A stretch of 7,759 nt of DNA from a virus (lineage: Duplodnaviria; Heunggongvirae; Uroviricota; Caudoviricetes), in the IMG/VR virus record IMGVR_UViG_2609459834_000008. The stretch is one strand, 5' to 3'. This document shows, piece by piece, positions 5,241 to 7,759 of this stretch. Made by a program: the position numbers and the translations under genes. The notes beneath the pieces were generated by a model. It made no database searches and was not told the DNA's origin. It saw only the letters and a list, made by a program, of their open reading frames with translations. Each line of letters begins with the position of its first letter. Position 1 is the stretch's first letter.

Positions 5241-7036
5241 TTATTTAACTCTGTAATAACTGGAACCTACTCCAATGAACTCATATATGTTTGGCGATGA
5301 CAGAGTAGTTATAAGAGTTGGTCCATTATAAATTCCTAATGTTTGTCCATTAAAGTTTACAGACAGAAGATCAATTAAAACTCTATTTCGAAGTAGATTA
5401 TAGGATAGAATTGTTAAATCTGGTAGCATTAATGTCTTACCTCCAACCAATGTCCCACCAAACTTTATTATATTCCTAGAATTATCCGGCCAGGGAGATG
5501 CTGAGTTAATATCATGCAATAATAGAATCTTCCCCGAGTCACGATAATCGGATAATGAATAAAATACTCCTTTTCCTGATGTGTGTTCGTTATCATAAAC
5601 TCCTGTCGGGGCGTTTGTGAGAACAGGTTGATTAAATCTAGTACCTTCGAATCTTGCAATATCAGGTGCAGAAGTAGACATCGTTAGTGTTGGTTGTCCA
5701 TTGCCATTAAAACCAACTGCGTTATCTCCAATACTTGATCTTGAAAATTCATTTACATCAAAGAAACCAATATCAGTGAATCCACCTTCGCTCACTGATT
5801 CATGGCTGTTTCCGGTAAATGAAAAGTTAGTAAAACGAGACGAGCATTTAAAAGCCGGACCTGATTCTGTAGTGTGGTGCCTACCAAACTTAACACCAGT
5901 GAATGTAATGTTATCACCATTTACACAATCCATAACATTGCTGATGTACCCAGAACCTGTGTTCCATCCAATAGAACCGCCAACCCATGAAAAACCATCA
6001 AACTCCAGAATGTCAAATATCTTACCGCCTGTAAAAGTATAGTGTGTGCAGTTTGAGAACATACATGACTTCATTCTTCTGCCACGGAAACCATACTTAG
6101 TGCCAAACAGATGGATATTAACAAAATTCCCGCCTTCTATTCCTTGAATGCTGTCGCCACTCAAATCAGTGCCGCCTACAAATTCTTTGGTACCATCTAC
6201 TATGATGTCATTCCACAGCCCATAATGCCCCATGCCAGATCCTTCTCCGCCGCCATTTCCATCTTTGAATGAGAAAGCTCGATATGTTTGCAGAACCCAT
6301 AAGTTGCTTATAGTGGGGTTCTCTATAACATCTAAACTGATGCATGCTGCCGTGCGCGGGTAGGTGTCATCTGGTAACTGATGCGCTCTTGATGTAAATC
6401 TGACAACTTTTGTGACGTTCGATATCTCTGACGAAGGGGTTCCATTACACCCAGTAACTCCGGTTAATATACAAGTTCCATCAGAATTGCTAGTAAGTCC
6501 GGTTGCGAAAAACGACCCGGAATTAGTGCTGAATTGACAGAAGTTACTCACCGGTACACCTGCGGTGTTGTTGTCAGTTAAAGGCCATGTAATTATATTT
6601 CCACCATTAGCCTGAAATGGATTTGAAGCAAGAGTAATGGTGTTTGATGTTTTGCTTATCACATCTGTGTTTTCTGAGCCTACATATTGCGATAAAACCA
6701 AGCGGTCTAATGAATAGCAAACGTTACCAAATACAATGCCCCTTGAGTTAAGTCCAACTCTTATCTCTGGGACATTCCCCAGAGAGTTTATTACACCTTC
6801 ACCTCTTATTCCTATGGATACAGGGATTCCATCAATGGAAAATGGTATTGCAACCTCTGTGATTATGTTTACTTTTGAGTTTGCTGTAACAATCAACTCT
6901 CCGTAGCCAAGCCGTACTAACGAATAAATAGCAAGTTTAATTACTGGCGAATCATTTGTGATGCCAGGTTCCTCAATGAAATTTTTTACTTCATTGATTC
7001 GGTACCCATTAAGCAGTCCTACACAAGCCCATTTAG
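5241..7036 (-). pseudogene. 3' portion (598 codons) of a Cys-containing, Gly/Asn/Ser/Thr-rich predicted beta-helix protein (tailspike / polysaccharide depolymerase / adhesin-like), 5'-truncated by IS5
   Basis: The reading frame is open with no stop right up to the IS5 boundary at 7036/7037. The first 23 codons of the 621-aa track ORF are encoded by IS5 terminal sequence, so the native N-terminus is missing. Composition (many G, N, S, T; repeated GxxN-like segments; about 11 Cys) suggests a parallel beta-helix fold. Fold and function are inferred, not demonstrated. Confidence 0.65.
7033..7036. repeat. TTAG, candidate IS5 target site (YTAR) abutting the IS5 end
   Basis: IS5 is known to insert at YTAR tetranucleotides and duplicate them. 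TTAG sits immediately before the first IS5 base (7037). The second copy would be beyond the window. Confidence 0.6.
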
Positions 7037-7759
7037 GGAAGGTGCGAACAAGTTCCTGATATGAGATCATCATATTCATCCGGAGCGCATCCCAGAGGGA
7101 CATCATGAGCCATCAACTCACCTTCGCCGATAGTGAATTCAGCACTAAGCGCCGTCAGACCCGAAAAGAGATTTTCCTCTCCCGCATGGAGCAGATTCTG
7201 CCATGGCAGAATATGACCGCTGTCATCGAGCCGTTTTATCCCAAGGCGGGCAATGGCCGACGGCCCTATCCGCTGGAGACCATGCTGCGTATTCACTGCA
7301 TGCAGCATTGGCACAACCTGAGCGACGGTGCCATGGAAGATGCCCTGTACGAAATCGCCTCCATGCGCCTGTTTGCCCGATTATCCCTGGATAGCGCCCT
7401 GCCGGATCGCACCACCATCATGAATTTCCGCCACCTGCTCGAGCAGCATCAACTGGCCCGTCAATTGTTCAAGACCATCAATCGCTGGCTGGCCGAAGCA
7501 GGCGTCATGATGACCCAAGGCACTTTGGTGGATGCCACCATCATTGAGGCACCCAGCTCTACCAAGAACAAAGAGCAGCAACGCGATCCGGAGATGCATC
7601 AGACCAAGAAAGGCAATCAGTGGCACTTTGGCATGAAGGCCCACATTGGTGTCGATGCCAAGAGTGGCCTGACCCACAGCCTGGTCACCACCGCGGCCAA
7701 CGAGCATGACCTCAATCAGCTGGGTAATCTGCTTCATGGAGAGGAGCAATTTGTCTCAG
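7037..7759 (+). mobile_element. IS5 insertion sequence, partial (left end; continues beyond window)
   Basis: GGAAGGTGCGAACAAG at 7037-7052 is the IS5 terminal inverted repeat, followed by the characteristic TTCCTGATATGAGATCATCATATTCATCCGGAGCGCATCCCAGAGGGACATC leader and the transposase start. Confidence 0.95.
7105..7759 (+). CDS. insH: IS5 transposase InsH (Ins5A), 5' portion; ORF runs off the window end
   Basis: Translation from ATG at 7105 gives [116 protein letters not shown]..., recognised as IS5 transposase. It is missing from the ORF track only because it has no in-window stop. Confidence 0.95.

Follow-up and report, generated by a model that had tools for sequence, protein, structure and literature searches.

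Insertion of an ISKpn26-like element in the tailspike gene of a decaying P22-like prophage of Escherichia coli, with a chimeric open reading frame as its probable by-product

A tailspike gene of the P22 type is interrupted by an insertion sequence (IS) at one end of an Escherichia coli contig, and we consider this interruption to be, very probably, an ordinary insertional inactivation in a decaying prophage, with the chimeric open reading frame (ORF) that spans the junction as a by-product. The stretch of DNA that we analysed, hereafter the window, measures 7759 bp and is the entire contig JNPE01000069.1 of the E. coli draft assembly GCA_000703505.1. We propose that an ISKpn26-like element transposed into a TTAG site of the tailspike gene carried by a P22-like prophage at the dacD/sbcB locus, dividing this gene after codon 192. 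What remains on the 3' side would have been deprived of promoter context, of the native start codon and of the two N-terminal domains that all full-length relatives have, and would be left as a pseudogene fragment. The outward frame of the IS would match the tailspike frame by a one-in-three chance, upon which gene callers would report a protein.

Results

Both ends of the contig fall in insertion sequences, IS1 at positions 1-457 (with a terminal repeat at 435-457) and an IS5-family element at 7037-7759. Since both elements are multi-copy, these repeats are what broke the assembly. Next to IS1 lie sbmC (528-1001) and dacD (1120-2286), both on the minus strand, and the first 16 codons only of sbcB (2495-2543). 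The plus strand then encodes a 335-aa protein (3041-4048), which belongs to the end module of the prophage and is found at the same position in all related loci; searches of Pfam, PHROG and NCBIfam with this protein gave zero matches. It is followed, also on the plus strand, by an intact gene of the acyltransferase-3 family (4142-5215), of the O-antigen acetylase type, which matches Pfam PF01757 and the PHROG O-acetyltransferase profile (E = 6e-72). Its protein is present with an identical sequence on six other contigs, IS-free relatives among them. This gene can be regarded as a neighbouring prophage 'conversion' gene. The 3' fragment of the tailspike gene, comprising codons 193-789 and the stop codon, occupies positions 5241-7036 of the minus strand, and besides this fragment no other phage structural gene was found on the contig.

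The IS5-family element lies on the plus strand and is represented by its left 723 bp, the rest being cut by the contig end. It begins with the 16-bp terminal inverted repeat GGAAGGTGCGAAYAAG (7037-7052), which ISKpn26 and K-12 IS5A have in identical form at their left ends. About 70 bp from this end starts a gene for a DDE_Tnp_1-type transposase, equivalent to ins5A, whose first 218 codons are within the contig (7105-7759, plus strand) and give Pfam matches to DUF772 and DDE_Tnp_1. When the element was aligned with the ISKpn26 copy of plasmid pCFS3292-3, a single mismatch was found over 723 bp, at position 7312, where transposase codon 70 specifies His in place of the Tyr of both ISKpn26 and IS5. 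Against K-12 IS5A there were many mismatches, the densest at IS positions 35-66. In RefSeq, copies that match it bear the name 'IS5-like element ISKpn26 family transposase'. The preliminary description had an IS5 inserted at a TTAG site; the site is right, whereas the element, judged by its sequence, is an ISKpn26-like member of the IS5 family rather than IS5 proper, which is clearly more diverged. The TTAG target (7033-7036) conforms to the YTAR consensus, and the alleles without an insertion (L001, L002, L007 and L013) have it at the corresponding position. In the window it is seen on the visible side of the IS, the opposite IS end being beyond the contig; the full ISKpn26 copy in L004 has TTAG on both flanks.

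The inverted repeat GGAAGGTGCGAACAAG begins at 7037, directly after the target site, and the similarity of the IS-free alleles to the window stops exactly at 7036. In the uninterrupted alleles the insertion site reads ...CCCATTTAG|TTGTTTC..., and TTGTTTCTAC corresponds to codon 192 and upstream of the tailspike gene, beyond the insertion point. Such a clean TTAG junction fits a simple insertion. It recurs in a second assembly, a Logan contig of SRR1186799 (L012) that differs from the window by 1 base in 6629 and reaches 24 nt into the IS, which makes a misassembly very unlikely.

On the minus strand, an ORF of 621 aa runs across this junction (5241-7106). It starts at an ATG at 7106, which overlaps the transposase ATG of the other strand, and it consists of 23 complete IS codons forming a chimeric N-terminus (7038-7106), the junction codon CCT (7037-7035) and then the native tailspike frame. 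The coordinates and codons of this 621-aa chimera, as they had been described beforehand with the in-frame ATG and the 23 IS codons, were all confirmed. Besides the ATG at 7106, the IS end contains four more in-frame ATGs. Records of the chimeric protein come from one contig only.

The interrupted gene is known in its complete form. In five of the six contigs with the identical acyltransferase (L007-L010 and L013) the adjoining tailspike gene is uninterrupted, and in L007-L010 it is complete, encoding 789 aa with the Head_binding (PF09008) and Tail_spike_N (PF18668) domains. These IS-free loci adjoin dacD, as does the window, and upstream of the tailspike gene they carry arc/mnt together with homologues of P22 gp16, gp20, gp7, gp14 and the tail needle. 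The gene thus has in L007-L010 the P22-like position after the ejection-protein genes and arc/mnt; in the window, the IS replaces that side. The comparison with IS-free alleles therefore yields an intact 789-aa gene at the same dacD/sbcB locus, to which the native part of the window ORF is identical at 591 of 597 residues (99%; allele P0007/L007), and this bears out the earlier supposition that the truncated gene is part of a longer ORF. At the DNA level, positions 3317-7036 of the window align with the IS-free allele at 98.98% identity and with no gap. More distant alleles, at 89% protein identity, are found in strain S1 (789 aa) and in E. coli E2348/69, whose 895-aa protein has another N-terminal adaptor.

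The insertion after codon 192 of this 789-codon gene removes residues 1-192, that is, the head-binding and Tail_spike_N domains, and what is retained is the receptor-binding part of 597 codons. PHROG 22294 matched residues 24-619 of the window ORF to positions 174-778 of its 779 profile positions; the tailspike homology therefore starts exactly at the junction. All 13 aligned homologues have 65-358 residues ahead of the conserved KWACVG motif, which is the equivalent of the junction. This stretch comprises at least 164 residues in 12 of the 13 and only 65 in P0165. The IS-free alleles have PF09008 (E = 5.5e-67 in the uninterrupted allele L002), whereas the window ORF gave no Pfam match and hence no head-binding domain PF09008. 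The window ORF is therefore a fragment and not a complete P22-like tailspike. The IS-free allele shares with the P22-type tailspikes both the head-binding domain and the position of P22 gene 9; the window ORF differs from them in being devoid of the head-binding domain, and its receptor-binding part comes from a small family.

Indeed, only 17 clusters match the retained part among 5.8 billion proteins, and in a search of 50,697 sequenced phage records the only matches were four near-identical Vibrio phages, at 30% identity. No match to it was obtained in Pfam, NCBIfam or PDB sequence searches. An AlphaFold model based on 14 sequences was of moderate quality, with a mean pLDDT of 68.9, values below 50 for residues 1-99 (IS leader included) and about 25 for the 23 IS-derived residues; it was beta-rich from residue 114 on. 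Foldseek matched the model to GH110, the Klebsiella K1 (capsule) lyase, LKA1 gp49, phi297 gp61 and 9NA, which are right-handed beta-helix carbohydrate enzymes and phage tailspikes or depolymerases, with a probability of about 1 and TM-scores of only 0.2-0.3. The native frame had been described as a beta-helix; the Foldseek matches agree with this, but given the low TM-scores and a model of this quality, we consider the beta-helix fold of the retained part plausible but no more than moderately supported.

We then considered the IS end by itself. The transposase start is contained in ...GGGACATCATGAGCC..., and the CAT of this sequence, read on the opposite strand, gives the ATG at 7106. K-12 IS5A carries an equivalent ORF, MMNPVLWLQMTNMISYQGLVRTF, which then continues into whatever flank adjoins. 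An ATG-ATG opposite the transposase start, followed by 23 stop-free outward codons, is a constant feature of the left ends of IS5 and ISKpn26. Of the two remaining outward frames, one stays open for only 10 codons and the other is the ins5B-like ORF (7033-7314), which is ended by a TAA contributed by the TTAG target; the coordinates of ins5B and ins5C are taken here from ORFs only. RefSeq contains chimeras that start at the same ATG, namely a 77-aa 'hypothetical protein' on pCFS3292-3 (L004) and a KdgM-family porin (L015), and one that starts at an internal in-frame ATG of the IS, namely RfbA (L014). A coding sequence reached into the first 67 bp of the IS in 10 copies of a spread sample of 60, and when four of these overlaps were inspected, 2 turned out to be chimeras and 2 pseudogene ends.

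When an insertion inside a gene is antiparallel, the frames match with a probability of 1/3. With two orientations and three frames, about 1/6 of the insertions into coding DNA are expected to give a chimera; an open stretch of 25 codons has a chance probability of (61/64)^25, or about 0.3. Because the ATG and the open frame are built into the IS5 and ISKpn26 copies, an in-frame fusion is not beyond chance. Moreover, since the same outward frame makes chimeras on unrelated genes, its presence at the tailspike gene carries no information. The idea that the in-frame fusion is more than a coincidence was rejected in view of these frame odds and of the generic outward frame.

Signals for transcription and translation were sought around the start of the chimeric ORF. 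Within the IS portion of the window, consensus scans, which can miss weak promoters, detected no sigma-70-like site on the minus strand, and in a complete ISKpn26 copy they detected none on either strand. Towards the right end of this complete copy, the minus strand has three terminator-like hairpins, which would hinder read-through from an upstream tailspike transcript. The Shine-Dalgarno sequence available to the ATG at 7106 is weak (AGGTGA, -4.4 kcal/mol, 11-nt spacing; -5.6 for the native start), and this ATG lies within the ins5B-like ORF, yet in another frame. The leader of 23 residues includes D, R, E and R and is unlike an export signal; disorder is predicted for it, and any product would therefore remain cytoplasmic, away from the O-antigen.

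The state of the prophage can be assessed from its IS-free relatives. In these, the tail-needle gene (171 aa) is directly followed by ead/ea22-type early genes on the other strand, and head and lysis genes are absent from their expected position. The P22 gene order leads one to expect head, lysis, replication and immunity genes, which by that standard are missing in the IS-free relatives; the prophage was therefore already defective. In strain 2018-05-2CC (L006), the dacD-sbcB interval contains a gtrA/gtrB/gtr module and a 276-aa beta-helix tailspike stump, directly followed by an integrase fragment.

The dN/dS ratio of the fragment was 0.12 against the IS-free allele and about 0.1 against all three alleles. 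Such low values are the trace of a gene that worked in the past, and they give no sign of decay. Twenty-three codons differ from L007, of which 14 are in codons 28-55 and 9 elsewhere, and the differences in codons 28-55 look like a recombination tract. The 9 differing codons outside the tract are too few to detect a relaxed selection after the insertion. The intact native ORF is what a recent insertion would predict.

Discussion

The event described here would be an ordinary gene disruption by the IS5 family. In nfsB of E. coli, and in mgrB and wcaJ of Klebsiella pneumoniae, IS5 or ISKpn26 inserted in the same way at a YTAR site inside the coding sequence and split the gene; nothing essential is different here, the target being a prophage tailspike gene. 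IS5 insertion mutants of nfsB were obtained in both orientations (PMC5493358), and the ISKpn26 literature that we found concerns gene disruption. The preliminary description had mentioned a plain inactivation as an alternative, and it is this reading that is favoured by the intragenic site, the lost domains, the generic outward frame and the missing promoter signal. We infer that the fragment is neither meaningfully transcribed nor translated, and that it is without function. The chimeric ORF is, in our reading, an annotation by-product that already stands in RefSeq as the hypothetical protein WP_032177421.1. Three observations point the other way: the 597 native codons are fully open, the antisense ins5CB operon reads towards the junction, and a truncated tailspike could be a competent enzyme if it were made.

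A different history can be imagined, in which a larger deletion or rearrangement mediated by the IS took away the 5' part of the tailspike gene along with the remainder of the prophage and left an orphan stump beside the acyltransferase module. We regard it as unlikely, though less so than the readings considered further below. The contig ends within the IS and the far side lies beyond it, so to speak, out of sight, and in strain 2018-05-2CC a stump at the same locus runs directly into an integrase fragment. The reciprocal N-terminal fragment that a simple insertion leaves was looked for as two predicted products, the N-terminal 192 residues of L007 or of S1 followed by a 36-residue tail from the right end of ISKpn26. 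Neither was found by exact look-up, and a homology search with the 228-aa reciprocal construct returned no representative spanning both the N-terminus and the IS-derived tail. However, a missing reciprocal is weak evidence, since the exact sequence is needed and such fragments may hide in full-length clusters. One candidate, P0033 (198 aa), was discarded as a contig-end fragment because it reads on into KWACVG. The break, moreover, is at a canonical TTAG with no bases lost on the visible side, exactly as a simple insertion predicts. In any case, a deletion would alter the history of the locus and not the verdict on the chimeric ORF.

It had been argued that, as IS5 ends activate adjacent genes, the fragment could still be expressed. 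The geometry found here does not match the cases of activation that we consulted. The activating insertions at glpFK, bgl (bglGFB) and flhDC are intergenic regulatory insertions upstream of intact operons (PMC5493358). In the case of fucAO, activation relies on a fusion promoter (Pfsn), composed of upstream host DNA and of the weak ins5A promoter of the left end, which transcribes in the transposase direction (PMC11894529). The element studied here belongs to the same family and its left end would hold the same weak promoter, but the insertion is intragenic, after codon 192 of 789, and not upstream of an intact gene or promoter. Moreover, the fusion promoter faces through the IS, whereas the tailspike fragment lies on the left-end side, on the opposite strand and pointing away.

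The chimeric ORF might instead be expressed from a minus-strand promoter of the ins5CB type or by read-through from outside the IS, giving a soluble beta-helix that has a 23-residue IS leader in place of the head-binding domain and would bind or cleave the O-antigen. This we hold to be improbable. It is true that the in-frame ATG, the four further ones and the weak AGGTGA 11 nt upstream offer possible starts and that the 597 native codons are intact. Deprived of its N-terminal domain, the P22 tailspike still folds and is stable and enzymatically active. The antisense ins5CB operon does read towards the left end, as the only IS5-internal unit to do so, but its promoter activity is reported as negligible, and terminator-like sequences are reported inside IS5 (PMC11677980). 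As mentioned above, our scans gave no promoter-like site on the minus strand and revealed terminator-like hairpins near the IS right end. The ATG is also out of frame with the ins5B-like frame around it, the leader is predicted to be disordered and does not resemble an export signal, the same outward frame is chimeric on unrelated genes and the protein occurs on one contig only. Expression of the chimeric ORF at a low level is nevertheless conceivable.

An even more demanding proposal is that the IS start is used and that the free receptor-binding domain has taken on a new role, for instance that of an O-antigen binder or degrader, cytoplasmic or set free by lysis, acting together with the acyltransferase. 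We find this very improbable; if true, it would concern a rare beta-helix family without a characterised member. Least credible of all is an assembly artefact in which the tailspike contig was falsely joined to a collapsed IS repeat, for although both contig ends are in multi-copy elements (IS1 at 1-457, ISKpn26 at 7037-7759), an independent assembler produced the same junction with 24 nt of the IS, and a random misjoin would not place the break exactly between a preferred TTAG and the first base of the inverted repeat.

Altogether, insertional inactivation of the tailspike gene places this locus beside other cryptic prophage stumps. The dacD-sbcB site keeps a modification module, the acyltransferase here and gtrA/gtrB/gtr in L006, together with a truncated tailspike. 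The present case differs in that a visible IS, and not a deletion, truncates the gene, and in that the fragment, at 597 codons, is long and has kept its open frame. A layout similar to this combination of modification module and tailspike stump is found in CPS-53/KplE1 of E. coli K-12.

Two consequences follow from our reading. The first concerns annotation: the left end of IS5 or ISKpn26 brings an ATG and 23 open codons, and thereby produces, in about 1/6 of the insertions into genes, a plausible 'protein' with a false N-terminus. Such chimeras stand in RefSeq as ordinary proteins, as is the case for WP_032177421.1, the KdgM porin and RfbA. The second is biological, in that the insertion would have carried one step further the decay of a P22-like prophage that is defective and in which the O-antigen acyltransferase module is retained.

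Chimeric reading frames at ISKpn26 ends

We found that the left end of ISKpn26, an IS5-family element, encodes the N-termini of proteins that RefSeq annotates as ordinary, non-pseudogene products at three other insertion loci, all on the minus strand. These are a KdgM-family porin (L015, 779-1570), RfbA (L014, 728-1543) and a 77-aa hypothetical protein (L004, the pCFS3292-3 plasmid locus that carries the full element, 1348-1581). These chimeras and the 621-aa chimeric ORF of the window, in which 23 IS codons precede the 3' fragment of a P22-type tailspike gene, are one and the same artefact.

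The ISKpn26-like copy in the window differs from ISKpn26 at a single position across 723 bp, namely transposase codon 70 (window 7312), which is CAC (His) instead of the TAC (Tyr) present in both ISKpn26 and the IS5 of K-12. A second outward frame, an ins5B-like ORF of 93 aa (7033-7314, minus strand), is open up to the IS terminus and ends at a TAA contributed by the TTAG target. The YTAR target consensus thus provides a built-in stop for that frame. In the complete ISKpn26 of L004, the right part, which lies outside the window, contains three terminator-like hairpins near the right end (2385-2609, minus strand), one of which is AGCCTATTTAGGCT followed by ATTTTTT. A search for promoter-like sites on both strands of this complete element found none.

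The prophage site and its surroundings

The first 16 codons of sbcB (MMNDGKQQSTFLFHDY; 2495-2543) give way to prophage DNA, so the P22-like prophage lies within the 5' end of this gene. In strain 2018-05-2CC, which carries a different tailspike stump between dacD and sbcB, sbcB is intact on the far side of the island; the N-terminus it encodes there (MTDTDKQPTFLFHDY) is not the same, and the phage appears to have contributed it. The P22 gene order serves as the yardstick for calling regions absent and, judged by it, the prophage in the IS-free relatives already lacks the head, lysis and replication regions. In these relatives (L007, 17111-18384), early genes of the ead/ea22 type, encoded on the opposite strand, directly adjoin the tail-needle gene (171 aa).

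The contig is flanked at its two ends by different IS elements. An IS1 occupies 1-457 (terminal repeat 435-457) and ends just downstream of sbmC; on the same side, the relatives run on towards yeeA. Upstream of the acyltransferase gene, a 335-aa protein (3041-4048, plus strand) forms a singleton cluster and had no match in Pfam, PHROGs or NCBIfam. Relatives that are otherwise 99% identical could not be aligned over its 5' region (2939-3317).

The tailspike fragment

Compared with the IS-free allele of L007, 23 codons of the chimeric ORF differ, 14 of them grouped within the 30 codons directly past the junction. Because the differing codons are clustered, and because the stretch at codons 28-55 (6950-7025, minus strand) in part resembles the more distant alleles of strain S1 or E2348/69, a short recombination tract is suggested there.

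The receptor-binding part of the tailspike (5241-7036, minus strand) is a member of a very small family. It matches only 17 clusters among 5.8 billion proteins; among sequenced phages, the sole matches, at 30% identity, are in four Vibrio phages that are nearly identical to one another; sequence searches of Pfam, NCBIfam and the PDB gave zero matches. Another E. coli protein, P0035 (301 aa, on a 2.4-Mb contig), is also a tailspike of the P22 type, its receptor-binding part differs from that of the window, and it continues into IS5-family right-end sequence (...REGANKQVISSQADSLIKISRIWADFFP...). Insertions of IS5-family elements in tailspike genes thus recur.
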